A stretch of 63,554 nt of DNA, counting the filler, from Diploschistes diacapsis (Eukaryota): NCBI GenBank assembly GCA_023645945.1. It is 26 parts of 26 records of this genome, joined end to end, with 100 filler letters (N's around TTAATTAATTAA, not from the genome) between each part and the next. Parts side by side here need not be neighbours in the genome. Positions count along the whole stretch, not along the records: positions 32,984 to 51,121 come from JALAIB010000423.1; 25 more parts are not named here. One strand, 5' to 3'. The position numbers and the translations under genes are program-made. This document shows positions 445 through 55,451 of this stretch, piece after piece; within the stretch, counting starts at the first letter, position 1; each line of letters begins with the position of its first letter. The notes under the pieces are model-generated. The model was not told where the DNA came from. It did no database searches and saw only the letters and a program-made list of their open reading frames with translations.

Positions 445-446
445 TA

Positions 447-23818: not shown

Positions 23819-23918
23819 NNNNNNNNNNNNNNNNNNNNNNNNNNNNNNNNNNNNNNNNNNNNTTAATTAATTAANNNNNNNNNNNNNNNNNNNNNNNNNN
23901 NNNNNNNNNNNNNNNNNN

Positions 23919-26790: not shown

Positions 26791-26830
26791 ATTCGACCTC
26801 GTACGTAACGTAATTAATAAATATGGTACC

Positions 26831-26993
26831 TGTAAGGCCTGCGGGGTTACACATCTGCCACCTACTGCCACAGCCACGCACCTACATATTGTGTAATAGG
26901 GAAACAGTGCTTCGGGGTTCCTGAAAGCATTGTGGCTAGTTTTTTGGCTCAGTGAGATAGCGTTATTTATTAGGTACTACCCCCGCTGTTACT
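26831..26993 (-). mobile_element. Family 1 solo LTR variant, reverse orientation
   Basis: Reverse complement of the 170-bp LTR over most of its length, with a divergent far end. Flanks are GTACC and GTATC. Confidence 0.8.
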
Positions 26994-27320
26994 GTATCCT
27001 CGATTTGAATATTTAAAATTTCGACGAAATCGGCTTTTTTATAGGAATATTAGGCTATATAAAGATCGTAATTACTTTAGATCGTAAAGATAGACTTCGT
27101 ACGAAGTAACCCGGTAATCAAGAATAGGTTTTTGTTATTTAAATTATTTACGTGGACGATTATACGTTGAATGATAATTCTTAAAACCGAAATCAAGATA
27201 TTTCGTATAACGAATAAAATNNNNNNNNNNNNNNNNNNNNNNNNNNNNNNNNNNNNNNNNNNNNTTAATTAATTAANNNNNNNNNNNNNNNNNNNNNNNN
27301 NNNNNNNNNNNNNNNNNNNN

Positions 27321-28140
27321 AACTTAATCCGAATATTAAAGTTACGTTAGGAAGCTCGCCGGCATAAAGAAAAGCGGAATTAAAAAAAATAAGTTCAACC
27401 GCAGAAATAGTATTGAACGACGAGTATTTTAATCTTATTATCCTAAAATTTTTATAAATATTTAGAAGGGAACGTTTTACGAAAGAACGGAAATAAACCC
27501 TAAATATAGGCAAGTAATTTATTAAAAAAGAAAGAATCTTATTAATAAAAGTATTATCAAATCGGGAAGCAACTCTAACCTAAGATTTCTCTCATATAGG
27601 ACGTATACGTCCAGAGATTGCGCCGCTTTAAGAAATAAACACCATCGATCACGAAACATGGTAAATAAAACCCTTTTATATTCCAAAAGCCCTGGAGCCG
27701 GTAGTGATAAAGATGCTTCAAGAACGAATCGATGCTGGGGTATTGGAATACTGCCAAGGACCGTACAGGAATCCATGGTTTTTGGTGGCCAAGACTGATC
27801 TTTCAAGCTTGCGGAACTAGATGGAACTAACCTCGCTGGAACCTTTGCAGGCAGAAGGCTGAAAGCCTTTGTTGTTGATCCTAGGGAAGATGTGGTAGTA
27901 CCGGATTCTGGAGCGACGGTCGAAGAGGATGAGGATGGATCTGTAGGAGAAGTGTCGGGAGGACACACTGACGAGGATCCTGAAGATAAAGTCCCCCCAA
28001 ATCCCCGGAGAAAGTATATACCTACAGGAAGAAACTTCGCGGTAATAATATAGGAGATGAAACCTCCTAATAATAAGAAGGAGAGAAAGGTCTAATTAAA
28101 TTCTTAATAAATATTCTATAAATTCGGGAAGGGAGGGACA
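27321..28140 (+). mobile_element. Internally deleted Ty3/Gypsy element: RT start joined to integrase tail, then PPT
   Basis: MLQERIDAGVLEYCQGPYRNPWFLVAK is followed within a few bases by FKLAELDGTNLAGTFAGRRLKAF. The purine tract GGGAAGGGAGGGA lies at ~28126-28138. Confidence 0.7.
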
Positions 28141-30719
28141 CTAAAAAATTTTCTTTATAATATTTTTTTCATTTCCGCGTCGAATATTTTATAATTTTAT
28201 ATATTAATTTTTATAACGTGTTTAACGGGGAACCGGGCCACCCCCAGAAGTGGGCCACCTCAAATTACTACCGCCAACATTCTACGGTTTTTAGATATAA
28301 CCTGTTCGTCGCAATTAGAATCTAATCGATCTAAATCGAATCTATCTTCTTCANNNNNNNNNNNNNNNNNNNNNNNNNNNNNNNNNNNNNNNNNNNNTTA
28401 ATTAATTAANNNNNNNNNNNNNNNNNNNNNNNNNNNNNNNNNNNNNNNNNNNNATAACGTGTTTCACGGGGATTCCGGCCACCCCCAGATTCCGGCCACC
28501 TCAAATCACTACCGCCAACATTCTACGGTTTTTAAATACAACTTATTCGTCGGAATCAAAATCTAATCGATTTAAATCGAATCTATCTTCCTCCTCTTCA
28601 TCCTTCTCGATTTTAAAAACGCGACGACGTTATTTACGCGTTATAGATCGTTTTAAAATTATCTAACTCGATTTAACCCGAATTATTATCTTAAGAATTT
28701 CGTCTATACTAAACATAAAATGATTTTTTAATTCGATTCGTTTATTTAATTTACGTTTTTTACGATTATTAAAAAGCGTTTTTTGCTTTCGGTTTTCTTT
28801 ACGAAGCGTTATGAATTTAATATACATCGATTTAAACATACGGGTTATTCGATTCGAATAACGTCGAATCGAATTAGTTAGTTCTAAAACGGCTCGCAAC
28901 GTCTAATTAAACTTTTTATTAATTTTTCGTAGTTCGGTCGCATTTAATAAAAAGTTATATAATAAGAATAAATCTAAATCGAATTGATTCGAGGTTAAAA
29001 AAAGGCTATAAAATAGAAATAAAGGGGTTCGATATATCGAATAAAGCTTATTAAACACGATTATAAAATTAAATCATTATAAGTTAATATTTATTAATTT
29101 TATTTAAACGTTTCGATTTATAATAACTCGATTTCGAATTATTAAAAATAATTCAATCTATTTCGAACGTACTATACGCGATTTATTTAATCGAATAATA
29201 TAATCCGTTTATTACGAAAAGTTTTTGGCGGCGAAATACCGCGAAAATCCGCAAAGTTGGCGAAACTGGCGAAAACTGGCGAAGATGGCGAGGCCAAGCA
29301 TTTTTTTACTAATATATTACGTAAGCCAAAAAAATTCATAATTATAATATAATACTAATAATATTAATAATAATAATAATTAATTAATGATTATATAATC
29401 ATAATTATATAATTATATAATTATTATTATTATATTATAAAGTATTTTCGCTAAGTTAATATATTCTTGATAATATTCGAATTAATNNNNNNNNNNNNNN
29501 NNNNNNNNNNNNNNNNNNNNNNNNNNNNNNTTAATTAATTAANNNNNNNNNNNNNNNNNNNNNNNNNNNNNNNNNNNNNNNNNNNNCCCGTATGCTTAAA
29601 TTGACGTATACTAAACTCATAACGCTTCGTAAAGAAAATCGAAAATAAAAACGCTTCTTAATAATCGTAAAAAACGTAAATCAAATAAACGAATCGAATT
29701 AAAAGATCGTTTTATATTTAGTATAAACGAAGTTCTTAAAATAATAATTCGAGTTAAATTTAGTCGGATAATTTCGAAACGATTTATAACGCGTAAAAAA
29801 CGTCGTCGCATTTCTGAAATCGAGAAGGATAAAGAAGAAGAAGATAGATTCGATTTAGATCGATTAGATTTTGATTGCGACGAATAGGTTATATTTAAAA
29901 ACCGTAGAATGTTAGCGGTAGTAATTTGAGGTGGCCGGACTCTGGGGGTGGCCGGACTCACCTTCAAACATGTTATATAAGATTCGAGTATTATTAATTT
30001 CGGATATATAGAAAACGACTAAATATATTAAAAACATCCTAAGTCCGTTAAATAAAAATATTATAATAAAAACGGAACAATCTATTCTTATAATAAATAA
30101 ACTAACGACTTTTAATATAAACTTACGACGTATTCGATTAAATATTACACCGGATTTAATCATCCCGGTCGACCTTAACCTACTTATAGAAAAAGATGAA
30201 ACGCGCAGATCGATAATTTCTAACAGATAGCTTTCTCTATCAACGACTAGAGATTCCTCGGTATTTAACGAAAACGTTAAGCTAACTAACCCCATAACCA
30301 TCAAGCTTAAGCAGAAGACCCTAGTATTAGAACTGTCATTTTCGGCAATCCTCCCCCACCTATCACGCCTATACGAGTTATCATAAAAGCCAGACGAATG
30401 ACCCTCGCCAATTAAAAGATATAAAACTACAATTATAAGTAAGAAAAGAAGTTACATATTATTCTAAACTAAAGGTATCTTATTTAAAAGAAGATTCTAT
30501 AATAATATAAAAGCTTTATTTCTAAAAATCGTGAACGCTCTCTTTATTTTCGGTATTTAAGGGCTATATACGGAGCCATGGGGCTCAAGAATAGGTAAAG
30601 AAATAGAATTATTTTAATANNNNNNNNNNNNNNNNNNNNNNNNNNNNNNNNNNNNNNNNNNNNTTAATTAATTAANNNNNNNNNNNNNNNNNNNNNNNNN
30701 NNNNNNNNNNNNNNNNNNN

Positions 30720-31751
30720 ATATATAATTATTTAATAACGAGATACTGAACGATATTAAAAGATTAAGAATCTTAAGAAAGAATCCTTAGCTAAAAGAGG
30801 AGAATAAGGTTTATTTATACACGAATAATTTTAGAACACGTAGACCCTTTAAGAAGCTCGATTACGTTAAAGTCGAACCTTTCTTTATCGATAAATAACC
30901 CGTTATACCGAACGAAACTAAACGAGTCAATTATCGATTTAAGTTATTAAAGGACGCGAAAGTTTATCTAATGTTCTATTCTCGATATCTCGAATCAGTA
31001 TATCTAAATATATTAATAAAAAAATGATTAGGCTCGCTATTTTCGCCAGCTTTCGCCAGTTTCGTCAGTTTCGTTAGTTTCGTCGGTTTCGCCGGTTTCG
31101 CCGGTTTCGCCGTATTTCGTCAAAGTTTTTAACGAAAGTTGGCGAGTCGCTTAAACGTATTATCTATCGTTCACCTCGTCGGTTTCGTTAGTTTCATTAA
31201 CCTCGCGGATTTTCGCGGTATTTCGCCGCTAAAAACTTTTCGTGATATAATTAAAATATAAATAATTAAATTAAATTATTATTATAAACCGAATATTATT
31301 TTAATAACAGATATAAAGAAATTAGAAAGATTTAAAACACATAATCACTTAATAACGAGACATTGAATAATGTTTAAAGATTTAGAATCTTAAAGAAAAA
31401 TCTTTAATTAAAGAAGGACGATAAGGTCTATTTATATATAAATAACTTTAGAACACGTAGACTTTCTAAAAAGCTAGATCACGTCAAAATCGGACCCTTT
31501 TTAATCGATAAATAACCCGTTATATCAAACGAAACTAAACGAGTCAGCTATCGACTTAAGTTATTAAAAGATGTTAAAGTTTATCTAGTATTTTCTTTTA
31601 AATATCTCGAACTAGTATATCTAGATATACCGTTACAAGAAACCTTTTATTTCGAATCAGATAACGAAAACGAGTACGAAGTCGAAGCAGTGGTGCATTA
31701 TAAAGATAACAAGTATTTAATTAAATGGAAAGGTTATCTAGAATCGGATAT
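30720..31751 (+). mobile_element. Gypsy chromovirus integrase tail (SH3-like plus chromodomain), two copies flanking a family C fragment
   Basis: KVYLYTNNFRTRRPFKKLDYVKVEPF appears twice, then ENEYEVEAVVHYKDNKYLIKWKGYLESD (chromodomain). A related copy lies on the minus strand at ~58140-58572. Confidence 0.85.
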
Positions 31752-32350
31752 NNNNNNNNNNNNNNNNNNNNNNNNNNNNNNNNNNNNNNNNNNNNTTAAT
31801 TAATTAANNNNNNNNNNNNNNNNNNNNNNNNNNNNNNNNNNNNNNNNNNNNATATAGATTATAACATCCGACGGCTGGTGGAGGAAGGATATGGAATTAA
31901 TATCATTTAAAAATCCGTTTTTATTAATTATAAGTAGAAAGATGACTATATATAATTCTTGTTAGGTATATATCGGAGAATCTAGGACTGATAATATAAA
32001 TTATAACGTAAATAAAAGGTAAAAGAGATCGTGTTAAAGGATGGCCTTATATATACCGTCGATAATAAGAAATGGATTATTTAGGATGAGAAGGATATTA
32101 AGATGAAGTTCGTATTTCAATTTTATGATAGAGACGACGTCAGGATTTCTAGACCGGAGTTATTTTATAAAGCATAGAAGTCTAAACGCGTAAGGAGGAC
32201 TATCTTATTTTAGTATGTCGGAGTTTAGTAAAACTATTTTTAGCTTAATATTGCTGTTTTTAATACATAGGAGTAGCTGTCGGCGGCATATCGTGATCTA
32301 GTATTTAATTTTTTTTCGTTTTTTGGCTTTTATAATATGTATGGAGGGAT

Positions 32351-32860
32351 TAGGCTGGCCGTCACTAACACTGACACGGCCGTGTCAGTGACACGGATAC
32401 TGATAGTGTCAATGTCCGTGTTTTAGATTTTTTAGCTACGGTATCCGTGTCCGTAGATTCACGAAAATGCAGTGTCCGTGTTAGTATTAATATTTTAAAA
32501 TTTTTAATTATAGTATCCGTATCCGTGTTTTTATTATAATATAATATTCGTGTCAGTATTCGTGTCGAGAAAATTTTAGCTGCGGTATCCGTGTTCGTGT
32601 TTTTATTATAATATAGTATTCGTGTTAATATCCGTGCCGAGAAAATTTTAATTGCGGTATCCGTATTCGTGTTTTTATTATAATATAATATTCGTGTTAA
32701 TATTCGTATCGAGAAAATTTTAATTACGATGTCCGTGTCCGTACTTTTATTATAATATAGTATCCGTGTTAATATTCGTGTTAAGAAATATTTAGTTACG
32801 GTATCCGTATTCGTGAATGTATTACGATACAATATCCGTGACTTCGTGTTTATAAAAAAA
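32351..32860. mobile_element. hAT-like family D terminus with 72-bp tandem subterminal repeats; second copy 60883-61296
   Basis: Starts (T/C)AGGC(T/A)GGCCGTCACT. A perfect 22-bp palindrome lies at 32369-32390, followed by ~6 units of 72 bp rich in GTGTCCGTG. Confidence 0.6.
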
Positions 32861-33406
32861 TGGCCGAGAATGTAGCGATAAATNNNNNNNNNNNNNNNNN
32901 NNNNNNNNNNNNNNNNNNNNNNNNNNNTTAATTAATTAANNNNNNNNNNNNNNNNNNNNNNNNNNNNNNNNNNNNNNNNNNNNGGGGACCTCTTGGTGGG
33001 TCGGTGAAGGTTGGTTATTGTAATGCCGCTGGATCTGAATAGTATGCTGGTCTTTGGGGTTGGCGTGTGAGAAAGTAGATAAAGTTTGGCCGTTTGCGAG
33101 CAAAAGGGAACTTGAAATGTGGTCTCGCGTATATATATCAGTTTAAGTTCAATACTATACTGGCAGGCAGAAAGTTAAAGTAAATCCCGTGACTTAAGAG
33201 GGCGGGTGCTTCGCCAAGCAAGGGTTGGGATATCTTGGTTTAGGCGAGCTCTGTCCTTTGATGGCCTGTCAACTCTTTATCAAACCTATGATCAAGCCCT
33301 TTTAACTTCAGAGTCAATCCGATAATTCTACGACTAGAGCACAAGCCGTCTCAGTGAAAGCCTGTCTCTCGAAACCACTATCTTTATCCTCCCTTACGGA
33401 GTCGCC

Positions 33407-37295: not shown

Positions 37296-38450
37296 ATGTC
37301 GAAGCTCATTGTTGTTACTGGAATCACAGGCGTTCAGATATGGTCATTAGAGTTGAAGACGTTGTAATTCTCAATGTTTTGACGGTGGATCTGTTGCCGC
37401 TACTTCCCTAAGGAATCCGGATGGAAAGTACGTGGTGTGACGCGAGACCCTGACTCGGAGAAGTCAAAGACATGGGCAGCCGAAGGCGTGGAGATGGTCA
37501 AGGTGGACGCCGATGATACTTCATCTCTCAAAGTGGCTTTCCAGGGCGCCAGAGCCATTTTTGTCGTGACAGATTTCTAGGGTCCCGTTTGGAACTCAAC
37601 GGGACAGGAGAAGCTCAAGCCTCGCCAGTCAACCTCCGAAAACGCCTTCGATCAAGAGACACAGCAGGAAAGAACTTTGCTGACGCGGCAGCTACCGTAA
37701 AAAACCTAGAGAGATACTTCTTCAGTGGCCTACCAGGGACTGCAGATTACGAAACACGCTATGAGAGCTTGTGGCATTGCAACAGCAAGGTTAAAATTGT
37801 GGACTATATCAAGAACCACCTCCCGGTTTTCCTTCGGACATTCGAGCCAGTGCATACTACGAGAATATACACTCTTCGCTCCCAATAACGCCAGCAAAGG
37901 CTTGCTATTTTCTTTGCTAGGGATGTGTATAAATCTTACTTTGACTAACTCTGATACAGGGATCTGATGGAGCTTGCGACATTGCATGCACCAGTGATCG
38001 AGATACGCCCTTTGCTTGGACCGGCGCTAGTCATGATGTTAGACTTTGCGTCCGCGCCTTGGTCGATCACCAGCCAACCAGGTTGTTGGCTGCCGATAGC
38101 GAATGGCTTGCTTGGCAGGAATACCTTAAAGTCTGGTGCGAGACCCAGAATGTCCCCGTGGGAAGGTACAACGAAATTTCCCCCAACAACTTCGCGAAAG
38201 CTTTCCCTTTCCACGTTGTAGGTATCGAATTCGCAGAAAATTTCCTTTCCTTTTCCTTCAGGACATCGCCAAGTATGAAAAAGCAGGCACGAACAAGTTG
38301 CTTCTGCCCAAGGACGTAAGTTAGAAAAGTCTATACTTCCTGGCGTGAGAGCTTCGCTAACGATTTACAATAGCTTGACATTAAGATGCAAACCTTCAAG
38401 GAGTACTGTACACCGATTTCTCCAAGATTCTTTCTTGGTGGCAAAAAAGA
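37296..38450 (+). pseudogene. NmrA-like (atypical SDR) pseudogene
   Basis: Reads MSKLIVVTGITGVQ...GGSVAA...WKVRGVTRDPDS...AFQGARAIFVVTDF*. The intron donor is mutated (ATATGG at 37338), TGG appears as TAG at 37578, and there are several frameshifts. A TATA box lies at ~37222. Confidence 0.88.
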
Positions 38451-39302: not shown

Positions 39303-41970
39303 ATGGATGAGCGCAAGGGTGCCCAATATCATTCACATCTCCAAGAACTTAAAACTCCACAATCTGCTCGAGTCAAAGTCGCTACCCAAGCTTCGCGATC
39401 AATATCGCCATATCTCCGCAATATCCTCTCCCGAACGCCGACAATCTCTGCGGCAGAGCATGGCCAAAGCATCACACCGTTGCGGAAACGCGCTCAAATA
39501 CAGCGCATCTGGAATTCCTCCCCACTGAATCCTAATAGACTTCGGCAGCGACGTGAAAAACCCCAAAAGCAGAAAGAAGCAGGTCAAACCTCTGGATCGG
39601 AGTTGTCGTCGACAAACCAAGCTTCCCCTCAAGATGTTGATAATTTACCGAGAGGACCTGAAGGAAGCCTTGAAAGTTTTAATAGAGGAGAAATAGTTTG
39701 GGGTCCACATGCCGATTTTGAGCTTCGCGAGCGTTCGAATTCGATTCGCTCCAGGACACCAAGAGCCGAGATCTGTTCTGATATGAGTGACGCTGTTCGA
39801 CCTCGAGCATCAGAGCAAAAGTCAATACCAAGCACCCCAGTGATAGAAAAGCCTACCAAGCAAAAGCTGCAAGTATCCTTTGACCGCTCACCTTCACAAA
39901 TTCAGAGGGGCTCTGGATACGTCTTTCCGAAGATCGAAGGTGCTGAGGACCCTGCGCGTAAACTCAAAAAATCACAGCTGATTAGGCAGCGCGTCGCCTT
40001 CTTTCTTATAGTGTTTTGTCTCAATACAGCGTGTCTTGTAGCTGCCCTGACGAGCTACCGACATTTGTGGGTCTTGGTCCTGATATTATTTCTCAAAGCG
40101 AAAGACATCTTGTCAACACTCGGAGCGGTGGCGTGGATTGCCAGTACGTCAGTTTTTCGACCAACGCGAAAGATTCCTGAAATATCTCCGAAGTGGATCC
40201 TAGCTTGCGTTACCGCATACGCAGAGACAGAGGCCCAAATTATGAGGACAATCAGCAGCGTCGTGGAGCATCCTCCAGCTTCACATAAATTGGTCATATG
40301 CATCATTCTTGATGGGAAACCGGTGAAAATACGCTCTTACTTCACTCGGATAGCCAAAACCATGCGACGACCATATCAGACATGGAAGTTCGCTCACGGT
40401 GAGCTTAACATCTACACTGGCTTTATGGAGCAGGTTCCTGTCATCATTTTCGAGAAGGTACGAAATGCTGGGAAGAAAGATAGCCTAATCCTGTGCCATG
40501 ATCTTTTTGACGAGATGAGGGATAACATATCAGTCTATACCCGAGCGTTGAGACGAGAGATTTGGACTGATATCCTGCCTTCTCTGCTTGACAATGAAGC
40601 CCCTACCAAGTTCGATTATATATTTTGTACTGACGCTGACTCGCTCATTCATGAGGGCACTCTCGAGAGTCTAGTGATCGCACTTGTGCAGGATCAAAAA
40701 GCGATTGCAGCATGCGGTTTGGTTCTCGCAGAAATGCAAAAAGGTAATGAATGGTCCATTTGGTACCTGTTCCAACAATTCCAGGTCAGTAATAGCACCG
40801 CCGTTGCAGATGACTCCATCAAATCTGATCCCATGAGCTTGATCAAGACCCTGATACTTCGTCCAGTATACTTTTGGACAATTTGTGCGGCGCCGTGCAG
40901 AAGGCATATGGGGACGAGTCACCTGTCTACCCGGTTGTGTTACGATGATCTGCGTACGCAAGGAGATGGCCGGCGCAATCAAGCTGTATGCGGAGCCAGT
41001 GACTGACCGCCTCGTATTCCAGCATCAAGTCCAGTACCTTGGCACAGACAGGCGACTCACCTATTGTATGCTTTCTCAAGGCAAACATTTGCGCACGCTC
41101 TTCGTTCCTCATGCTGTCAGCGAGACAGTAGCACCTCAAGGCTATTTTCATTACATGAGCCAACGGCGACGGTGGGGATCCAACGCTTATTTCAACGACT
41201 ATTTCTATTTCACAGGACCCGAACATTGGATCGTCACTAGGCTCTGGGCCCTCATTGACATTGTGCGGCAGACTCTAGTATACTACAGAGTAGCCAACAC
41301 CATCATGTTTGTTTACGGCTTATACCATCATTTCGTCTTTATCAAGCTCGTTCCCTATATCGTTGTTACTCAGACACCCACCGTTTGGTTTGTGGTTCTG
41401 GTACTCTTCCATGAGCCTATTCTCCGAAAACAAGCGCATAAGCTGTTCTGCGGCTGGGTAATCAACAAATTTTTGTCGCCAATCTTCTCTGTGCTTATTT
41501 TCACGAATATTATAATTAATCTGGGAAGTGCAGGTACGTAAATGCGAGCATTAGAGCGAAGAGCAACTGCTGAAATTCGTGCAGTGTGGGGTAGAACAGG
41601 CGCGAGTACTGAGCCGACAAATGCCCTCGATATTCTACATACTATTACTCCAAAGAAATCATGGTGAGTCATCTTCGAGACACGGTCACTACCATGCCAC
41701 GCCTCGATCTGATCTTTATGCAGGACGCCTAGAAACATAGCGACCCTTGTTCGCGAAGTAATCAGAGAGCGCACTCGGAAAGCGGCGGAGGGACCTCAAC
41801 GAGAAGTCAATCAGCCTGACAACGAAGGTTCAGCAGCAGATGCTCAGCCCCCACAGGCGCAGCAGTCATTGGCTCACTTCGATACTTTCTGGGACCAAGA
41901 TGGGAACAACAATCTTGTCGGACGACGGGTCCCCCGCACTGAGTACGAAGGCCTGGAGGACGTCTTCTAG
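39303..41970 (+). CDS. GT2 chitin-synthase-like processive glycosyltransferase, non-canonical type; exons 39303-40784, 40867-41533, 41585-41663, 41724-41970, 824 aa
   Basis: Motifs VTAYAE, ILDG, NAGKKDS, TDADS, QQFQY, VTCLPGC, LGTDRRLT and SQRRRW, with N- and C-terminal TM helices. Three GT-AG introns restore a single frame. Confidence 0.92.
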
Positions 41971-42153
41971 ACTAACTTGAGTATAATGATGCCGTATACT
42001 AATACGGTTCAGCTCACTCTTACGGAGGCTATGGATACGAACAGATTCATCCAAGTGTATATACAGTTGTGATCTGTGAAGGAATTTCGGTTTCTAACTC
42101 TTTTTCACCAAAAAACCCTCTGTACCGTTTCGATATCCAAATCTCATAGCCGG

Positions 42154-43518
42154 CTAAGCATAACCGTTTATTGTTTCTCCGTAGGCATAATAAGCCTTCG
42201 GCATTAAAGATACATTCGCAGTATCTATCAAAGGAAGAATAGGCTCAAAGCCCAAACTGTTGGGCTTTCCTGAACTCCGGTCTTGGAAAACTTTCGGGTT
42301 GTCTAATGCAACGAATTTCCAGACAAACGCATGCTTCAGTCCGCGTAGGACGCTGAAGTTGATTTGCTTTTGTTTGAGACATACGGCTATGCCGTCAAAC
42401 TCCCTGTCGAGGTAAGTTCGGTTCCACCTCCGTTTGTGAAGCTTCTCCAACCAAGGGATCTTCTCTTTGACTAGTGGATCATAGAAAGCGAGTCTTTCGC
42501 AGCCAGTATCCGATAAAGACTTTGCGAACGCTAGCGCCGGCGAACTCGAGATGTCCGACTGGCCCGGTTTGAAGGCAATGCCGACGACAAGGACCCTGGG
42601 CGGTGAGAAGGGCTCGGTCAGTGGCGAGGGAGGGTCCGCTGTGCTGTTTGACAAATACCTCGTCATGCAGCGTTGATGGAATCTCACGGCCATTTTTTGA
42701 GGCCGTTGTAGCATCATACTGGTCGCCTTCTCAAGCATTGGGAGTCTGTTGTTTGCGAAAAGATAGTATGGGTTGACGGGGATGCAGTGACCACCGACGC
42801 CGAGGCCGGGATAGAAGGCCTGAAAGCCAAAGGGCTTTGTCGTCGCGGCGTCGATCACCTCGTCCGGATTTATTGCGTGAGCCCGACATGCGTCGCTGAT
42901 TTCGTTGACATACGCGATGTTGATCATTCGGTAGCAGTTTTCGTACAACTTGGTCATCTCGGCAGCCTCAGGCTTTGAAACTTCGACTATCTCTTCAAAC
43001 ACCTGCGAATATATGGAAGCGATGTGTTTAAGAGCCTTGGGTGTCAGGCCGGACACTATCTTTGGGATTTGATGAGTAGGAGGCTCGACGCGCCCGGGGT
43101 CGATACGCTCCGGCGACATACCACCGTTGAAAAGATGTTTTGAGGGGCCGAGAAGTTCCTGGGTTGTTCCTACGGGAACGGTACTTTCGATGACGATCGT
43201 GCTGCCTCGCTTTGCATGGCGGAAGACAGCTTGTACAGCAGCGATAACGAAATCGAGATTGACAGAACGGTCCTCACGAACTGGAGTTGGAACGGCAATA
43301 AGATAATGCGTTCCATGTGATAGATTCGACGAATTGGTGGTCAATTCAACTTTCTGGGGCAGGTGATCAAACGTCCCGTCTGATTTAAGTCGATTGATGC
43401 GATACTCCGACGTATCATAGCCAATGCAACGGAATATACGGCCAAAATTCTTGAGAAGGGATTCACCGACGAAGCCAACACCAATCACGCATATGCAAAT
43501 GCTTCCGAAGGCCGACAT
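42154..43518 (-). CDS. UDP-glucose/GDP-mannose dehydrogenase family, UDP-N-acetylhexosamine 6-dehydrogenase type (WbpO/TviB/WecC-like), intronless
   Basis: Motifs VIGVGFVG, VPTP, IESTVPVG, SPERIDPG, AEMTKLYENCYRMINIAYVNE, catalytic GVGGHCIP and GIAFK. Confidence 0.93.
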   Translation of the reverse strand: MSAFGSICICVIGVGFVGESLLKNFGRIFRCIGYDTSEYRINRLKSDGTFDHLPQKVELTTNSSNLSHGTHYLIAVPTPVREDRSVNLDFVIAAVQAVFRHAKRGSTIVIESTVPVGTTQELLGPSKHLFNGGMSPERIDPGRVEPPTHQIPKIVSGLTPKALKHIASIYSQVFEEIVEVSKPEAAEMTKLYENCYRMINIAYVNEISDACRAHAINPDEVIDAATTKPFGFQAFYPGLGVGGHCIPVNPYYLFANNRLPMLEKATSMMLQRPQKMAVRFHQRCMTRYLSNSTADPPSPLTEPFSPPRVLVVGIAFKPGQSDISSSPALAFAKSLSDTGCERLAFYDPLVKEKIPWLEKLHKRRWNRTYLDREFDGIAVCLKQKQINFSVLRGLKHAFVWKFVALDNPKVFQDRSSGKPNSLGFEPILPLIDTANVSLMPKAYYAYGETINGYA

Positions 43519-44136
43519 TGTGCTAAAACATGAATGATCTGTTCAAGGGGGGGAAGTCACGTCTGGAATTTAAGAGCAAATTGTGTGCTATGAATCCCAT
43601 AAACATATCTCTACAGGAACCGTTGCTTGTGGCAATGATCTTCACTCTTGGCCGCATGCGGCTGACCTTCTGCCTTCTTTTTCTCTTTAAGCTCGCTGGG
43701 TCCGAGGGATCCAGTTTTGATTACTAGAGTGCATACCAAAGATCAAAACAAAGAAATCGAATTTTCTATTATTTCGTTTCTGGTATCACCGGAAACATAT
43801 CCCTTTCATTCCAATCGACTTCCGTCAGCAGGGTGCAGCTTCTCATTGGTTCCGATGTCTACCGCCCAATATCCTGCTACACCCCTCACTTGGATGTAGC
43901 GGAGAATGCTGGAGACGCCGAGGACTGCGTACGACTTCCAGGGGTAATATGTCCCATATGAGACGTGCTCAGGAATGCAAGTCGCAGGACGCGTCTTAGG
44001 CACCGTGTACTTATAGGTTGAAATGGCATGTGTAAGAGGCCTGTATCTCTCGTTCTTTGGAACATTCCTGTGCTTTTGAGCGGGTGTCTTGACCATACTA
44101 TATTCTTCGATTGAAGTGGCCTTTGGACGTGGAATC

Positions 44137-46350
44137 ATGAAGCCAATTGTACTCTCTTTGTTGATTTCCATTGTTCATGTTGCTGGCCAGAGTTACGTGT
44201 CAGATGTAGCCCCGTACCAATATCTAGGTTGCTTTTCCGATGCGGCCAACCCTCGTACGCTGTTTTACAGCGAGACTACCAACATTGCGTTCACGCCAAA
44301 GACGGTGGAATCTTGTGTTGCTCTGTGTTCGTCACTCAGCTACATTTACGCTGGGCTCGAATACTCATATGAGGTCTGTCGGTCTGCCACCTTTGGCCTA
44401 GACAGATTACTCACGTTACTCTAGTGCTATTGTGATAACTCGACAATCGCCTCGCCGACTCAGTCGGCTGATTCAGCATGCAATTCACCCTGCCAAGGCA
44501 GCGCCACCGAAGCGTGCGGTGGTAGCTACCTCCTGAGCGTATATTCGCTCAACAAAGCCGCGTTCAAGGCACCCACACCACCCACCACCGTAGCTGGAAC
44601 TTGGGCCTACGTCGGCTGCTACGCCGACAGCCTGATCTCCAGCACGCTTGCTAATGGCCTGTACAGTGCAACCCAAGGCTCTACTGCCGAGAGTTGCGCC
44701 ACTTACTGTGCCGGCTACAAGTACTTCGGCCTCGAATACGGCTACCAATGTTACTGTGCCAATAGCATCACGTCCGGAGCCGCCACCTCGACACAGTGCA
44801 GTACCCCTTGCACCGGACGACGCGACGAGCGCTGCGGAGGGAACAACCTCATCGATATCTACACTTACCAAGCAAGCGGTGCAGCAGCCGCTTCCGCCTC
44901 ATCCGCCTCGGGCGCCTCATCTCCGCTGAACGTCTTACCCGTCCCGGGCGTCTTATCCGTCCCAAGCGTCTTGTCTGTCACGAGCGTCTTATCAGTCCTC
45001 AGCATCTTATCCGTTCCGAGCGCCTCATCCGCCTCGAGCATTTTATCCGCCCCGAGCGCTTCATCCGTCCCGAGCGTCTTATCCGTCCTAAGCGCTTCAT
45101 CCGTCGCGAGCGTCCTATCTGCCTCGAGCCTCTCATCCGTCCCGAACGTTTTATCTTCCTCAAGCGTTTTATCCGTCCCGAGCGCTTCATCCGTTCCGAG
45201 CGTCTTATCCGTCCCGAGCGCTTCATCCGTCGCGATCGTCCTATCTGCCCCGACCGCCTCGTCCGTCCCGAGCGTTTTATCTTCCTCAAGCGTTTTATCC
45301 GCCCCGAACGTTTTATCCGTCCCGAGCGTTTTATCCGTCCCGAGCGTCTTATCCGCCCCGAGCGCCTCATCCATCCCGAGCGTTTTATCCGTCCCGAGCG
45401 TTTTATCTTCTTTAAGCGTTTTATCCGCCTCGAGCGCCTTATCCGTCCCGAGCGTTTTATCTTCCTTAAGCGCCTCATCCGTCCCGAACGTTTTATCTTC
45501 CTCAGGCGTTTTATCCGCCTCCAGCGCCTTATCCGTCCCGAGCGTCTCATCCGCCATAAGCCTTTTGAGCGTCTTATCGACCTCGAGCGCCTCATCAACC
45601 CTGAGCCCGAGCGCCTCATCCGCCCTGAGCGCTTCATCGGCCTCGAGCGCCTTATCGACCTCGAGCGCCTCATCGACCCCGAGCGCCTTATCGACCCCGA
45701 GCGCTTCATCCACCCTGAGCGCTTCATTCGGCCCGAGTGCCTCATCCGCCTCGCGCGCCTCGCGCGCAAGCGCATATGCCGCCTCCGTTGCCTCGGTCAA
45801 TTCCGCCAAAAGTTTGTCGAGCGTCTCCCGCTACTCGGCCCAATCGGCCAACAGCGCCTCCAAGGCGTCCGCGTCGTCGTCCCGGTCCGCAGCACGTGCG
45901 CAAAAGTCCTCGGCCCAGTCCGCACACTCAGCCTCGCTGTCTTCCGCGCGCGCCGCCGTGTCGAACAACAACGTCAACTACCGTTCCAGCGAGTCCGCGT
46001 CGCGCTCGCAAGCCCGCGCAAGCAAATCGTCCTCGCTGTCTGCAGCGCGTGCCTCGAGGGCTTCGGTCAACAGCCAGCACAGCGTGTCGCTGGCTTCTGC
46101 CCGATCCGTGAGGTCGGTGCTGGACCAGAGCGCGTCGTCGTCGCGCTCGCAAGCCCGCGCAAGCAAATCGTCCTCGCTGTCTGCAGCGCGCGCCTCGAGG
46201 GCTTCGGTCGACAGCCAGCACAGCGCGTCGCTAGCTTCTGCCCAATCCGTGAGGTCGGTGGCTTCGGTGCTCTATGCGTCGGCGCATCCGGCTTCCCGTG
46301 CTTCGACGGGTTCCAGTGCTTCGACGGCTTCGATGTCGGGTGGATGCTAG
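44137..46350 (+). CDS. Secreted protein with two WSC domains and a long Ser/Ala/Val-rich repeat tail; exons 44137-44373 and 44425-46350, 720 aa
   Basis: Signal peptide MKPIVLSLLISIVHVAG, then YLGCFSD...YAGLEYSYE|CYCDN...PCQG...CGG and YVGCYAD...YFGLEYGYQCYC...CGG. The 51-nt intron puts the WSC exon in frame with ORF 44971-46350. Confidence 0.92.
44893..45780 (+). repeat. Intragenic tandem array of 18-nt units (PSASSA/PSVLSV)
   Basis: Units such as CCGAGCGCCTCATCCGCC and CCGAGCGTTTTATCCGTC. It is followed by two direct repeats 141 nt apart (46000 and 46141). Confidence 0.95.
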
Positions 46351-47923
46351 GATGCCCCGGCGGCGACTGCGACATGAAGCTTGGGGTTGTTGGCTTGCTT
46401 TGGGAGCAAAGAGAGAAGGAACTGGCGCGGTAGTTAAAGGTAGGGCCTATGACATGCTTTGATGAGAGCAAGATTCAGCGACATCGGTTGGGGACGTTAG
46501 GAGAGGCGATACTGAAAGGTTGCAACGTGATTGATTGTACGAGGCATGGAACGAGAACGAAGTATGAGCTATTGCTTAACAAAGGCGCGATGAAGGATAA
46601 AGCATGTTGCTAATTTGGGAAGAGAGAACTAAAGATTTACAACGTTCCCACCTCTTGCTTCTTTGCTTCTTAACCGCCCGCACTTTTCGGATATTTAAAT
46701 AGGATGGCCTATGCAACTCGTGTTCTGGATGCGTCCAATGCTGTGACGCTATTACACGCTTTCATTCCCATTACTATACCCACAAAACGGCCTACAAAGC
46801 CTGGCAATCCGAATGCGACTGCTGGGTACACCGCTTCCGGGTGTTTTATTTCGCGGGACCCTCTGCATTCCTGACCGCTCAGAGGCCCACCCCAGCTGCA
46901 CAGTTTCCTCCACCCTCTCAGAGCGTAAAACTTGTTGCAAAGGTATTTTCACGAGTACTTCCAACCCACTCCGGAAGATTCCCAGATAGTGAGTACTTTA
47001 GGCTCCATCCCATCGCAGTCACATTCCGCATGCAGAGGATGGTGGTGGGCGAACGTAAGGTTGCAGCCCCCTTTCTCCTGGATTCTTGCCGTTTGGGGTA
47101 TGGTGTTCTCCGGTTGGATGCAGGCTTTGCTCCGTTATATCGTAGAGGGAGGGCTCCGGCCCGGCTTTTCAAAAATTTCGAAACAATTCTTTCAAGCCCA
47201 ATCCGGGGGCGCAAAATAAGCTTCAGAATCTCAACAAGACTGTTATCTATGGAATCACAGCTAGAATTCTATTTGAGGTGTTGATGGAATAAGGCGCTGA
47301 TGGTGCGCTGCGCTGGGGCCACGGCATCGGGCGTCCCGTCGGGGGATCCATCTCCGGGCGGATAAAATCCATAACCGAGGTCGGGGTTCCAGCGGTTGAT
47401 GTTATCCCCGGTTGTCCTTATCTCCGGTTATCCTGCTCACCCTCCACATATAGTGTGCCTGCCAAGTAGTTTAGCTCATATCCAGTTCCCATAGTAATTT
47501 ATGGTTATCTAGATATTAATAATGTATTACATAATCTGAATCTACTTCTTTCTCCATAAGATTTAGAGCTCATTTTCAGAGTTTAATATAACCCTTTTCA
47601 GGTTATCTGATACAAGGGTATGTGATTTGTGTACGCCACCAAATGACTTGAGAATTATTTAAGGAAATGCACATACAAATCTTATGTGGGGACCCAACTT
47701 AACGTGTACGCAAAATGATTGTCAGCCCTATAGTATCTATATAGAGTCAAACGGATGTTATCGTAAGCGACCCCATTTGGCCCGCGAACAAAACGAAACA
47801 ACGGCCAAACATGATGCCGCCCGCCACCCCCTTGCGCAATCTCAATCTCAATCTCAACCTCAACCTCAACCTTTTACTCTTATCACTTACCAGATCAGCC
47901 TAAAACCCAGCCTAAAATCCCTT

Positions 47924-48298: not shown

Positions 48299-49175
48299 AT
48301 GCTCTTCTCCTCCGCCTCCGCCCTCGCCCTCGCCCTCGCGGCCCTCGCGGCCCCAAGCCTCGCCCTCTCCGGCATGGCCACCACCACCGTTCGTCTCCTA
48401 TCCCCAAAATTACTCCTTCTTATCCCCCACTAACCCCTCCTCCAGCGCTACTACGATGGCCAAGAAGGCGCCTGCGGTTGCGGCTCCGACAACGCCCTCT
48501 CGACCTGGCAAACCGGGCTCGGCAACTCCATCTACACCGCTGCTGGTTCGCAAGCGCTGTACGACCCCACGGGCAGCGCCTGGTGCGGCAGTGGCTGCGG
48601 TACTTGCTACGAGCTGACGTCCACGGGCTCTGCACCCGCTGGCCAAGGCGCCGGCGGCCCCGCGGGGGACAGCATTGTCGTGATGGTCACGAATTTGTGT
48701 CCGAATGCGGGCAACGCGCAGTGGTGCCCTGCCCCTGGCGAGAAGAACGATTTCGGGTACGATTTCCATTTCGATCTCATGGCGGAGAGCAGTGCGGTGC
48801 CGGAGATTATTGGGGATAATCCGGTAGTGAACTTCACGCAGGTCGCGTGTCCGGGGGCGGCGGTTACGGCCTTCGAGACGTGTCAGTGCAATGCGGGGAC
48901 GGGGGACAGGTAGTGGGAGCGGTAGTGCATCGAGCACGGGCTCTGGACCCTCTTCTACCTCCGTACCCTCGCCCTCCCCCTTGGCTGCCGAAGCTGGCTC
49001 TTCCTCTGGCTCTTCTTCTGTCTCCGCACCCTCGCCGTCAGCTTCCTCCGGATCGTCATCTAGCGTGGCCGCCGGGTGGGCTCAGTGCGGCGGAATTGGA
49101 TACAATGGTGCCATGACCTGCGCCAGCGGCTACACGTGCCAGGAGCAGAACGCGTTTTACTCGCAGTGTTTGTGA
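48299..49175 (+). CDS. GH45 subfamily B endoglucanase (T. reesei EGV/Cel45A-like); intron 48389-48445; linker plus CBM1 out of frame after ~48905
   Basis: Signal peptide, then [33 protein letters not shown] and HFDLMA, with a stop at 48911-48913. A Ser/Gly linker and [32 protein letters not shown] follow in the +1 frame. Confidence 0.93.
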
Positions 49176-50777: not shown

Positions 50778-52646
50778 TGCATCTGCCGGGAGTTTGTAGG
50801 AGGACCCAAGAGTGAGTTGAGCGTGCGAGATACCCGGAGAACATTTGAACGATGGTTCTTGTATATTTGCGTCACAAAGTGGATTGATATGTATACGCGT
50901 CACGCCGGAATATATAAAAAGGGTACACGAAATGGTGTTGCTTGGTGTATATAACATATCAATCTATGCACCCAATACACAGTTACTTTCAATGCGTACC
51001 GGTTTCCCGAACAATCGTCGTCAAGGCCCGAGCCACGGGGCAACAACTCGTGACAGCCACCTGTCCGCGACAAGGAGGTCCCAAGCACTCCGCAGCAGAG
51101 GCCCCCTCCTCCTCAACCCTCNNNNNNNNNNNNNNNNNNNNNNNNNNNNNNNNNNNNNNNNNNNNTTAATTAATTAANNNNNNNNNNNNNNNNNNNNNNN
51201 NNNNNNNNNNNNNNNNNNNNNCTCTATAGCTCTTTAAAATGTTAATTCGAGATAATCTTAATTTAACGTCGCTAATCATTTCCTACTCGTTGGCGATTAG
51301 CGCGACATAACTCCTTAAGGCTTTAATCGACGAGTATCTTTTATTATTCCGTTCTCGTTTACTAATAATAAAAGTCGTGTTAAACAGATTTCTATCCTAA
51401 TGCGTAATTATTATTATTAATATATTATTCACGTTCATTTTGGTTGATTTAGGTTTAGGGTGAAATTCGAGTTCAGGTTCAGTGTTTCTTTTTAGAATTT
51501 CTATTCGTAAGAACTTTCTGACTGAAGTATCGGCCCCTAGGGTGCTGTGATCTGTAACCGATTTAAATGGTTTAACATCTTTTGTCTGATTTTTTGGAGT
51601 ATAGGTCCTTAGGGTGCTATGATCTACCGCTAATTCAGATGATTCAGTATATTCGTTCTAAATTCCCTGTTTCTATATTATTGATATCCTGTTATCGTCC
51701 GTGATTGACGTGTTATTGTCGTTTATTATTAACGAGATATTGACTTCCCCGATACTGTATATTAGGTTAACGGCTGGTCGTTTTATTGGCTTTCGGATAA
51801 ATATCATGTTATCGCCTTTCTTATAGCTTTCGAAAAGCTTTAATTTTTAAAAAATAAGTGTTTTATTTTTTTTAAATTTAATCGAACTCGTTCTAATAAT
51901 TTTTTAAAGATCTAGTGTAAACATAAAAATAGGCTGTGGACTTGGTGGGGAGCGAGTCCCTCAGAGCAGCTCCACATAAGGAGGTCTGCTAGGTAACTCT
52001 AGACAATCAATGCATCCTATATCTCACAAATGTCCTACCTAGGTATGCTATTGATGTTATGATCTCTATCTATACAAGGTATACACGAGTAGGATCAAGG
52101 TGGGTTTGGTCTCTGTTAGAAGAGGAATGTGGTAGGAGAAGAAGATAAAGCAATCATAAGTCTTGGACTGTCTTTAGAAAGAAGGCTCTTTAATGATAGA
52201 AGTAACGAATATAAATTGATCCCGAATAATGATTAAGGATGTTTATAAAAATANNNNNNNNNNNNNNNNNNNNNNNNNNNNNNNNNNNNNNNNNNNNTTA
52301 ATTAATTAANNNNNNNNNNNNNNNNNNNNNNNNNNNNNNNNNNNNNNNNNNNNTTTAATTTTTTATTTATAATAAAATACTTAAAGGTTTTATGATCGAT
52401 TAATATTAAAATAAATTAATTAATTAGAAAGGTTGGTAATTCGGGTTTTTATTTTTCAAAACATTATACGATAACGAGTATTTTTTAATCGTATATTACA
52501 TAATTGCATTAAACGAGATCTATACTTTTAAATAAATAAACGACGGCTTATAACATGCCGTTATCGGTTTCTTAGAATAAAATATCTTTAATAATAACGT
52601 CGTTAGCGTCCTATTTAATCAAAAATGGTTTATTAAGATTAAAATA

Positions 52647-53384
52647 TGTCATTAGAACGCCCCTACAGGAATACTACATAACCAGGGCCTGAGCCTAATC
52701 TCGAAGGATCACGTGTAGCTGCAATATGTAGGCTGAATGGTTCAGATTCGAAAAGGTAAAGAAGGAACTATCTAGGTGGGAGTAGGGCACAAATAAATAG
52801 TCTGGGTGCCAGCCCTACTGCCCTACGGGGTTCAACCCTTGAACCCACAAACGTTCAGGATGTTCCAGTCATTATGGATTCGGAAGACACGACCTTTTTT
52901 AAAATATCGAATGTTTTCGTTTCTTTTTCTCTTTAGACCCCCGCTGTATCCATCTTAATCAAATTATAAAGGGGTTTAACGACCTTACTAAAATTAAAAA
53001 TAAACCCTCGATAGAAGTTAACGAATCTTAAATAGCTCCGTATAATTTTCGTCTTTTTTCCGAATTTGGGCCGGGGTTAATTCTTGATAACTTTAATTTT
53101 TTTAAAATTCATCTTTACGTTCTTAAAGATAAAAAATAAGTCGAAGTATTTAACTTCGATAATATTAAACTCGGTTTTAAAAATATGTACGTTTAAATTT
53201 ATTTCTTAAAGACGTTATAATACCCGTTAAACTTGTTCCCGATAAGTTTTTTTATTATTTATAAATATTAATAAATCATTTATATAATAAGACATAAAAT
53301 CGATTATATAGTTAAAATTATTATTTATAAACTGCTAATACGAGTTAAAACTTACGATTAATTCGAAAGGCATTATTTTAAATT
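52647..53384 (-). mobile_element. LTR retrotransposon 3' end: 243-bp LTR (52647-52889) with PPT and RIP-damaged internal sequence
   Basis: TGTC...GACA termini. A minus-strand purine run (AAAAAAAGG) lies a few bases before the LTR. Confidence 0.6.
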
Positions 53385-53965
53385 NNNNNNNNNNNNNNNN
53401 NNNNNNNNNNNNNNNNNNNNNNNNNNNNTTAATTAATTAANNNNNNNNNNNNNNNNNNNNNNNNNNNNNNNNNNNNNNNNNNNNAATTAACGTCGATACG
53501 ACGTTTTCCGTCGTTTTTTAAATTATTATTAACGAATCGGAAAAGATTTTTAATTAATTATTCGTTTATCTCGATCGATTCGTTTTTATCGATAATATTC
53601 CGTAATATCGTTTAATATTTTTCGACTAAATTAAAAGCATAATCGCCGCCTTTATTCGCCGTTAAATAGCTATCGGACGACGCGTAATAATAAACGCGGA
53701 ACAATAAGCCGCGGAAACGAAGATAAAGGTCGAAAGATTTTTTAAATAAATCAAAACCGCCGTAACGTAAGATATACCGACGGCGATACGTTATATAATC
53801 GAAATCGAGTTATTTAAAATAAAAATACGCGTAAAGGAGATCGAGTTAGAGATAACGAAAATAAAGGCGGCGGCGCGAGCGATAATAAAGACGATTGAAG
53901 AAAAAAAAGGTAACGTGACGATTAAATAGGAATTAACGGCGGGGATATAAGCGACGACGGTAAAT

Positions 53966-54515
53966 TGTTATGATCTCTATCTATACAAGGTATACACGAG
54001 TAGGATCAAGGTAGGTTTGGTTTCTGTTAGAAAAGGAGTGTAGTAGGAGAAGAAGATAGAACAGTCATAGGTCTTGGACTATTTCTGGAAAGAAGGTTCT
54101 AAGGTGATAAAAATAACGAATATAAATTAATCCCGAATAATAACTTAAGATGTTTATAAAAATAAATATATTTTTTTTTACGAAAGTAGAATCGTGTTTA
54201 TATATAATCAGCTCGCTCGCCGTTTATCGTAAGTTTAATAAGCGATACCCCCGAAGCTCGTCGTTTATAAAAATAAACGCGATCGTCGAGCGGTGGCGAA
54301 AGCCTGCTCGCCGTTTACGAAAATAAACGCGAGTAATAAACGTATTACGTAATTTTTGATCCCGTAACTGATTTATATATAAAGCTAGGACGTATTAAGT
54401 CTAGTACTTGGATCGTAATATTATCCTTTTTTTTTAATATTATCGACCCGATAATTCGCCGAAGGGTATAATATAAATATTAAATAAAAAAAAATCCTAA
54501 ATCGTGAAATAACGA
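53966..54515 (-). mobile_element. LTR family 2 complete 3' LTR (53966-54420, ~455 bp) with PPT; parallel copy from 56108
   Basis: TGTTATGATC...GATCGTAATA is followed by TTATCCTTTTTTTTT (a PPT on the minus strand). A less mutated opposite terminus, TGTTACGATCCAAGTACCAG, starts at 63181. Confidence 0.85.
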
Positions 54516-55279
54516 NNNNNNNNNNNNNNNNNNNNNNNNNNNNNNNNNNNNNNNNNNNNTTAATTAATTAANNNNNNNNNNNNNNNNNNNNNNNNNNNNN
54601 NNNNNNNNNNNNNNNAGCTTAAACTTAATTAATAAACTAATTTACTCTCGATATCTAATACCTCCAGATATAACAAATCTAAGAAATCTTAACCAAAATA
54701 TCTTTCTTAGACACTAAATAATAACTAATAAGTAAAAACTGGCTTCAGACTAACAATAAAAACACCAAAAACGAGATCGACACATACAACTAAAAATCGA
54801 TCTCAAACTAATTAAGAAAACCAAAAAAGAACAAAACAACTCACAAAACAGACTCTATAAGCTACAAACTAAAAAGAATGAGGAACTTCACAAAAACCAA
54901 GCTTTAATATGAACTCTAGTCCGAGCAGAGGACTGGTACAGACAAGGACCTTGCTGCTGGAGCTAATAGACGCTCTAGGAATTGGTCTACCAAATCGTTG
55001 CTACCATTTGGTATAATAGTATCAAATCATTATATAAATAGAAAATACATTCTAAATAACTAGGTGGGCATCGAGCCCTTTATAACTACTACAATAACTA
55101 CTAAGTAAATGGATGCCCAATGGCATCATCCCCCATGGCGTCACGATCGACGCCGGCGAGGGCAGGAGCAAGCGACACCCCTAGTAGCTCAATAGCTACA
55201 ACACGTTACGTTGCCAAACAAAAAATATAATTAATATATTATTAATCGACCGAGACGCGTTTTTAATTTTATTTATCGT

Positions 55280-55451
55280 TGTAACAGCGGGGGTAGTGCC
55301 TAATAGGTAGCAACTATCCCACTGAGCCAAAAGACTGAACAAAATGCTTTCAGGAACCCCCAAGCACTGTTTCCCTATTACACTATATGTAGGTGCGTGG
55401 CTGTGGCAGCAGGGGGACCTGAACCCCGGTACGCACACTTCGGGCGTTACA
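55280..55451 (+). mobile_element. Family 1 solo LTR with TSD ATCGT
   Basis: TGTAAC...GTTACA flanked by ATCGT on both sides. Confidence 0.92.

Follow-up and report, generated by a model that had tools for sequence, protein, structure and literature searches.

What does a fungus make with a chitin-synthase-like enzyme whose gene lies beside that of a nucleotide-sugar dehydrogenase? The question is raised by a 63,554-nucleotide stretch of DNA from Diploschistes diacapsis (GenBank assembly GCA_023645945.1), hereafter the window, in which three intact genes at positions 39303..46350, all on a single contig (G000:C3591), encode a four-exon family 2 glycosyltransferase (GT2), an NDP-sugar 6-dehydrogenase and a secreted protein with two WSC domains (2xWSC). 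The locus is best read as a fungal synthase–dehydrogenase cassette of the ESV (Ectocarpus siliculosus virus) class, accompanied by a lineage-restricted third gene. On balance we favour a scheme, drawn from sequence comparison, in which the dehydrogenase would supply UDP-GlcNAcA, the synthase would polymerise and export an acidic chain (uronic, probably GlcNAcA) and the WSC protein may tether it. The synthase–dehydrogenase cassette is already known; the three-gene variant and a class-wide residue signature are added here.

A preliminary description of the locus had listed a GT2, a dehydrogenase and a secreted 2xWSC protein, and all three were recovered as intact genes with the gaps exactly as given, 183 bp between GT2 and dehydrogenase and 618 bp between dehydrogenase and WSC gene, their identities being confirmed by Pfam domain matches. 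The GT2 gene, on the plus strand, encodes 824 aa with DG, DxD, GTDR and QRRRW motifs and a match to Chitin_synth_2, and its introns of 82, 51 and 60 bp are of the GT-AG type. Because the annotated protein P0396 of Thelotrema lepadinum (Ostropales, Lecanoromycetes) aligns with GT2 end to end and has the same junctions (62% identity, 836 columns), all three introns of the splice model are supported. The Thelotrema dehydrogenase locus tag is adjacent to its synthase tag (MMC10_007073/007074), and adjacent synthase and dehydrogenase tags are also found in Chrysothrix and two Capronia species.

Pairs of this kind have a published record. Chen et al. (2014) described the GT2–dehydrogenase pair in Exophiala, other fungi and algal viruses, named the dehydrogenase UNGD by phylogeny, called the fungal role of UDP-GlcNAcA unclear and noted that flanking genes differ between species groups; in Exophiala the pair falls jointly under stress (-2.21/-1.89 and -3.13/-3.08), while at low pH transcripts of six out of the seven chitin synthases go up (PMC4059230). 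The ESV and CV classes were introduced by Gonçalves et al. (2016), who reported a patchy ESV distribution, no Lecanoromycetes in their Table S4 and, in the text available, no functional evidence for fungal ESV proteins (PMC5122149). For a Trichoderma chs8–cda1–UNGD cluster, a chitin/hyaluronan product was speculated (PMC7053769). The preliminary description rightly took the arrangement as probably not new and knew of no characterised product; in a literature search that mostly excluded subscription journals, we too found neither a characterised product or activity of any ESV protein nor a WSC link to the pair. The Ser/Thr-rich neighbours that it mentions fared less well, as "serine" and "WSC" have no matches in the main text of Gonçalves et al. 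and "WSC" has none in the available text of Chen et al.

The best 120 of the 159 proteins found in a homologue search with GT2 include Exophiala CHSL and entries named ESV-1-84. Among these matches the closest named relative is that of the Lecanoromycete Thelotrema, with 80% identity to the catalytic core over 496 columns, and the Exophiala dermatitidis protein shares 52% over 520 columns. Two quick trees with SH-aLRT support only were computed, both excluding the GT2 of locus L015; the second dropped 12 more rows, two long branches among them, and added 12. The first gave a 16-row fungal ESV clade with support of 100 and a 28-row clade including the phaeovirus-type L093 with support of 97, and the second a 26-row ESV clade, also with 97. 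L093, which we take to be EsV-1, carries a dehydrogenase–synthase pair. In both trees the window GT2 falls in the fungal clade, sister to giant-virus sequences and then to L093, and CV-type proteins, the canonical synthases of the same genome and proteins like hyaluronan synthase (HAS) fall outside the ESV clade, as the virus-like label of the preliminary description would have it. With its D,D,D,QxxRW motifs intact and a UNGD-type dehydrogenase adjacent, the window GT2 is, by phylogeny, a member of the ESV class. Its sole NCBIfam match is NodC, and chitin-synthase matches (PF03142) occur on eight further contigs of the genome.

We considered and rejected a bacterial home for the class. The two matches on bacterial contigs cluster with the phaeovirus-type sequence, and one of them (L138:4595-13644, an Alphaproteobacteria metagenome-assembled genome [MAG]) has the L093 gene order of DnaJ, kinase, dehydrogenase, ESV synthase, replication factor C and histidine kinase, so that it is probably a mis-binned phaeovirus-like contig; L139, a Verrucomicrobiales MAG, groups with it. 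A fungal dehydrogenase near that of Exophiala faces a different GT2, with SEDW and QRFYRW motifs, and a GH16 gene in place of an ESV or CV synthase (L015:9782-17160).

The ESV class differs from other synthases at two active-site positions. FEY is changed to FQY and EDR to TDR in all 29 aligned ESV rows and in none of 15 others, and the second row set repeats this (26/26 versus 0/17). Among the 120 best homologues, 52 reach QxxRW; GTDR is found in 50 of these and FQY in 48, and the two without GTDR lack the segment altogether. In the window GT2, Gln494 replaces the Glu of FEY and Thr554 (codon at 41044-41046) the Glu of EDR, next to the catalytic Asp555, so that neither the EDR nor the QxFEY motif of canonical chitin synthases is present. 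QRRRW and the CLPGC and WG loops vary little or not at all. In PsChs1, E495A loses ∼95% of activity and E432A is strongly impaired, Glu495 being the proposed donor binder (PMC9556331). We found no description of the FQY/GTDR signature in the available text of the ESV-class publications.

The class has also gained charge in the membrane. The ESV membrane helix that comes next carries a basic residue at position 628 in 29/29 rows and at 635 in all 28 rows that span it, and these residues may line the channel. Such a loss of two acidic residues together with the gain of two basic ones would be expected with an anionic substrate, and the sequence evidence favours an acidic polymer over chitin. The HAS enzymes offer a comparison. 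Arginines of interface helix 1 (IF1) hold GlcA, R296 of XlHAS1 contacting it, and the channel is electropositive with the portal between transmembrane helices 5 and 6 unused (PMC11750622, PMC12987647); in CvHAS, the C6 carboxylate of the donor sits in a pocket formed where the GDDR helix begins (PMC11750622). The CvHAS pocket position is Thr in ESV, and an ESV IF1 arginine is retained at the position aligned here with XlHAS1 R296, the IF1 alignment running through the HAS-like viral rows L041 and L126 and not through the solved proteins. The own-genome synthase L004 (G000:C304:4083-7585), which we take to be probably of class VI, keeps EDR and the Glu at the FEY position yet has Arg at both ESV-type membrane positions.

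An AlphaFold model of a relative, P0009, has a pLDDT of 70 overall and below 50 for residues 1 to 186. It matches HAS (Z 23.3, rmsd 3.7, 389 aligned) and Chs1 (Z 23.5, rmsd 4.0, 375 aligned) equally well, so the fold does not decide between HAS and chitin synthase. A homodimer prediction for the P0009 core scored 0.00 and is used in no reading.

The dehydrogenase is intact in its GxGxxG, SPER, KxxENxxR and GGHC (Cys245) motifs, and Lys190 and Cys245 are invariant in 63 sequences. It passes the general model for NDP-sugar dehydrogenases (TIGR03026 NDP-sugDHase, 251 bits against a cut-off of 190) and falls below the specific ones (TviB, 110 against 592 bits; WecC, 135 against 459 bits), so that WbpO/TviB-type, the label first given to it, proved too precise. 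Scores of 110 to 135 bits on UDP-N-acetylhexosamine (UDP-HexNAc) models, compared to 36 to 76 on UDP-glucose models, and best PDB matches that are UDP-ManNAc dehydrogenases give the sequence a lean toward UDP-HexNAc enzymes. It is the sole PF00984 match in the assembly, in which neither a UDP-GlcNAc 2-epimerase nor a second dehydrogenase family member was found; the assembly is fragmented (4361 contigs), which makes such absences weak, and the missing epimerase argues weakly against UDP-ManNAc. One dehydrogenase clade accompanies ESV, CV and HAS-like synthases alike, and the dehydrogenase alone therefore cannot name the polymer. The best plasmid-borne relatives (∼34% identity) are encoded in a nucleotide-sugar operon in which no processive synthase could be seen, and the B. 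cereus group provides a bacterial precedent for a GlcNAcA-containing exopolysaccharide (PMC8861577). In one giant-virus block (L126:4515-11999), a HexNAc-leaning dehydrogenase, an alginate-lyase-family gene, a HAS-like synthase, GFAT and a phosphoacetylglucosamine mutase occur together and may, from gene content, make a hyaluronan analogue.

Gene neighbourhoods were compared in the best 80 of 528 confirmed metagenome loci and in 28 viral loci, and 47 virus-like loci were reduced to 29 groups at 90% dehydrogenase identity. A PL14 lyase gene adjoins 7 of the 14 groups with a GTDR synthase and none of the 15 others (7 with another synthase, 8 with no synthase in view), a nominal p of 0.002, or 0.047 against the 7 other-synthase groups alone; several contigs are short, and one group with both synthase types was counted as GTDR. 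The PL14 enzyme vAL-1 is a uronate lyase (PMC9614988, PMC12423752). A PL14 search of the D. diacapsis genome gave no match, nor did its control sequence. GFAT or deacetylases adjoin the viral ESV genes of L024, L045, L067, L092 and L139, which suggests an N-acetylated sugar. On the AT-rich viral contig L092 (119-7121), HAS-like, ESV-type and division-1-like synthases stand in a row with a deacetylase. The gene next after PL14 in L033 and L036 codes for a multicopper oxidase, and several other viral ESV loci (among L114-L125) have an open reading frame (ORF) of the same length there.

The 720-aa product of the third gene, encoded in two exons, is hydrophobic at its N-terminus and carries two WSC domains followed by a Ser/Ala/Val tail (223 Ser). 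We saw no membrane or glycosylphosphatidylinositol-like terminal segment in it, and the C-terminal 250 residues have no hydrophobic segment. Wsc1-type wall-stress sensors carry a membrane helix and a cytoplasmic tail after the Ser/Thr stalk, an architecture that the window protein lacks. At a distant fungal locus, L012, the same WSC–dehydrogenase–GT2 order and orientation recur with gaps of 782 and 212 bp and unrelated flanks. Its dehydrogenase is 51% identical to that of the window, both falling in a four-row clade with support of 99, and its WSC protein begins with a signal-like stretch, carries two WSC domains and has a basic Ser/Ala tail that lacks an anchor. The strongest basic tail (net +13 per 100 residues, the next being +8) and one short motif are confined to the window and L012 proteins among 157 WSC sequences, a set that is biased by having been largely retrieved with a profile of these two. 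The divergent spacers (618 and 782 bp) share no significant similarity. Because WSC matches occur on only 8 contigs of the genome, a chance repeat of the WSC slot is unlikely (∼1 in 1000, assuming ∼9000 genes). A word-index search for orthologues gave five generic WSC proteins only, and a profile search was swamped by multi-WSC proteins, its only full-length match being L012's own; four further WSC matches lie on none of the synthase or dehydrogenase contigs. The WSC gene looks, from this comparison, like a lineage-restricted third member whose linkage to the pair is probably selected and not due to chance. That its protein binds the polymer product is a tentative proposal.

We propose the following route. 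The cytosolic dehydrogenase would oxidise C6 of a UDP-sugar with NAD+, most likely converting UDP-GlcNAc to UDP-GlcNAcA, and the compact four-helix GT2 would use this acidic donor, alone or with UDP-GlcNAc, to elongate a β-linked chain and export it through its own channel as a soluble polyanion, not fibrillar chitin. Most speculatively, the WSC domains would bind wall glucan and the basic tail would hold the polyanion, thereby holding a surface coat or matrix in place. A bolder extension, which we advance with some reserve, is that the ESV "chitin synthases" of fungi and giant viruses would be FQY/GTDR aminouronan synthases exporting C6-oxidised chitin (poly-GlcNAcA or GlcNAcA/GlcNAc), here WSC-anchored and a candidate for the acidic matrix of some lichens. 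No eukaryotic polymer of this kind turned up in our literature search.

Several observations weigh against the proposed route. The orientation of residues 628 and 635 toward the channel is presumed, both membrane arginines are present in 1 of 15 non-ESV rows (L004, absent from the second tree), and HAS carries Asp at the site of the ESV Thr. The PL14 groups are not independent of one another, as six of the seven share one gene order, and viral lyases may simply attack host walls. CV-class synthases share the dehydrogenase neighbour and keep both glutamates; since the CVK2 synthase adjoins a second dehydrogenase gene and is reported to make chitin, dehydrogenase adjacency is no proof of an acidic product. 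The dehydrogenases of L038 and L126 are at least 90% identical; the first adjoins an ESV synthase and the second a HAS-like synthase with GFAT, and further ones lie next to HAS-like genes in L041, L052, L130 and L131, which makes UDP-GlcA a possible donor. In the phaeovirus-type neighbours, the dehydrogenases (L093:4386-5450, L138:6957-7850) are short and divergent, keeping GGHC and lacking SPER and ENxxR. The WSC gene was found at 1 of 112 loci and was absent from the other 111 (∼19 of them judged fungal by eye, several with short flanks), including the GTDR loci L027 and L028, and the window and L012 WSC proteins are not reciprocal best hits. A 2025 review describes ESV genes as thought silent (PMC12653383), and our finding no activity data for any ESV protein counts on the same side. 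Of the anionic GlcNAcA polymer first suggested for the locus, the anionic character is supported by the active-site signature and the PL14 linkage and the choice of GlcNAcA over GlcA is not established, given L038 and L126; the WSC link recurs at one other locus, L012.

The same evidence bears on other readings of the locus. The dehydrogenase could oxidise UDP-glucose, or be promiscuous, with GT2 making β-1,4-glucuronan or a GlcA/GlcNAc copolymer. The L038 and L126 dehydrogenases would fit this, as would the citing of vAL-1 among cellouronate (β-1,4-glucuronan) lyases, a report of glucuronan from Mucor, and GlcA as the lichen uronic acid identified so far (PMC7164778). We nevertheless consider it unlikely, given the far higher scores on UDP-HexNAc than on UDP-glucose models, a phylogeny including characterised enzymes from which Chen et al. 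arrived at UNGD (PMC4059230), the deacetylases beside several viral ESV genes, and HAS motifs that are not retained. A divergent chitin synthase making plain or lightly substituted chitin, with the dehydrogenase serving another pathway or capping or modulating chains, would agree with GT2 branching within the division 2 radiation of chitin synthases, where the CV group is its sister, with the chitin-making CV-type CVK2 enzyme and with an intact catalytic Asp, QRRRW and WG loop. It becomes distinctly unlikely when the class-wide replacement of both glutamates required in PsChs1, the other chitin-synthase genes of the genome, the regulation of the Exophiala pair opposite to the chitin synthases and the PL14 linkage are taken into account.

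GT2 might also be non-processive or make short oligomers, for example by placing an acidic sugar on a lipid carrier, with no exported polymer. Only four membrane-type helices are present, the protein stops after the gating loop, the fold search of the P0009 model also matches PcManGT (Z 22.1), NodC is its one NCBIfam match, and Chen et al. note an acidic glycolipid route for another dehydrogenase–transferase pair (PMC4059230). CV-group proteins are equally compact, and fibres were exported by the CVK2 enzyme, which has 516 aa; conservation extends to QRRRW and to the CLPGC and WG loops, and a linked lyase implies a polymer, all of which renders this account quite improbable. Hardest to sustain, and in our view very improbable, is a silent relic of viral transfer with the WSC gene as a chance neighbour. 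The silence suggested in the review, the patchy distribution and the rarity of the WSC slot would suit it, but frames and splice sites are intact, the cluster lies outside AT-rich blocks resembling repeat-induced point mutation (RIP), the catalytic core remains close to that of Thelotrema, the Exophiala pair is differentially expressed, L012 repeats order, orientation and spacing, and WSC matches in the genome are few.

If the acidic-polymer scheme holds, the locus would extend the range of fungal surface polysaccharides by a new one and open a way to water-soluble oxidised chitin, at present produced chemically, by means of two enzymes, and the residue signature offers a specific and cheap test of whether the whole class makes a polyanion. 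Members of the ESV class occur in Fusarium, Colletotrichum, Exophiala, smuts and lichen fungi as well as in giant viruses. The pair goes back to the 2014 description, and the 2025 review continues to list the ESV type among unclassified chitin synthases (PMC12653383). Lichens contain acidic matrix polysaccharides whose composition is not definitively known (PMC7164778), and the product would be a candidate for this acidic matrix, a connection that is purely hypothetical. Should the scheme be wrong, the locus adds a further example of a cassette already in the literature.

Table 1. Coordinates of the features of the three-gene locus, counted along the window.
Feature	Position	Strand	Description
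GT2 exon 1	39303..40784	+	GT-A core (motifs DG, GKKD, DxD) after a disordered N-terminus and two membrane helices; 3' end is Gln494 of FQY
GT2 exon 2	40867..41533	+	IF1 arginines 502/503, CLPGC loop, GTDR, QRRRW (Trp597), Arg628, Arg635, two more membrane helices, IF3
GT2 exon 3	41585..41663	+	WG gating-loop motif; junctions as in Thelotrema P0396
GT2 exon 4	41724..41970	+	Hydrophilic C-terminus, no further membrane helix; P0396 and L012 similar past the WG motif
NDP-sugar 6-dehydrogenase (UNGD of Chen et al.)	42154..43518	-	454 aa, intronless, all three UDPG_MGDP_dh domains
Divergent spacer, dehydrogenase/WSC gene	43519..44136	.	618 bp; candidate bidirectional promoter
WSC protein exon 1	44137..44373	+	Signal-peptide-like N-terminus, start of WSC domain 1
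WSC protein exon 2	44425..46350	+	Remainder of WSC1; WSC2; Ser/Val/Pro repeat stalk without charge; then Ser/Ala/Arg tail, basic, with no anchor seen
18-bp (6-residue) tandem repeat	44931..45553	+	34.6 copies; codes Ser/Val/Pro stalk
Basic Ser/Ala/Arg tail	45718..46347	+	Best 100-residue window: 14 Arg+Lys vs 1 Asp+Glu; contains 141-bp duplication at 45998-46260

The surrounding stretch is fungal DNA in which gene-rich islands lie between AT-rich blocks. These blocks (24-35% GC; 1-4000, 22000-33000 and 51000-63554) have RIP-like dinucleotide ratios and N gaps, and they flank islands of ordinary genes such as those for Rad51, an eIF2B subunit, Nup120 and a family-3 glycosyltransferase. Upstream of GT2, a short ORF at 37517-37888 has a weak NmrA-like match (E 0.0009) and is possibly a gene fragment. 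About 2 kb downstream of the WSC gene, at 48434-49175, lies a gene with a GH45/expansin-like domain and a C-terminal CBM1, none being seen in L012. The 18-bp repeat accounts for the long ORFs in other frames across 44766-46433, which were discarded as spurious. No deacetylase domain was found among the window ORFs scanned, some small ORFs lying outside the scan.

Among known systems, the locus is closest to the ESV CHSL–UNGD pair (Chen et al., 2014; Gonçalves et al., 2016), sharing its clade, the adjacent dehydrogenase and the lack of a deacetylase found beside the synthase; the available text of those papers makes no mention of a third, recurring gene for a secreted 2xWSC protein like that of the window. 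With the CV class (CVK2 CHS, FgChs8, Trichoderma chs8), it has in common a compact synthase, the same dehydrogenase family nearby, a sister clade and, in most rows, paired IF1 arginines. In that class both glutamates are retained, the two membrane arginines are missing and deacetylases or GH18 chitinases lie alongside, whereas the window GT2 lies in a separate clade and carries GTDR in place of an EDR-type motif. Canonical chitin synthases of divisions 1 and 2 (PsChs1, ScChs1) share the GT-A core, the catalytic Asp, QRRRW, the gate loop and the WG loop, and GT2 differs from them in lacking the EDR and FEY glutamates, in its separate clade and in its 24% identity to the division 2 enzyme of its own genome. 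The dehydrogenase resembles the bacterial UDP-HexNAc 6-dehydrogenases (WecC, Cap5O, TviB, WbpA) in its NAD-binding motif, SPER, KxxENxxR and GGHC and in its best PDB and NCBIfam matches, and differs in scoring below every substrate-specific cut-off, WbpA not being among those compared. As to class I HAS (CvHAS, XlHAS1), the hyaluronan-like label of the preliminary description fails as a statement of membership, since GDDR and the R287-equivalent arginine are absent: GT2 has GTDR, a Gln at the first IF1 arginine, ∼14% identity and a separate clade, and in place of the six helices of HAS there is no hydrophobic segment after the WG loop, the P0009 model aligning to CvHAS 38-473 only. It is nevertheless like these enzymes in fold (Z ∼23), in its two N-terminal membrane helices, in the IF1 arginine aligned with R296 and in its pairing with a putatively uronate-making dehydrogenase.

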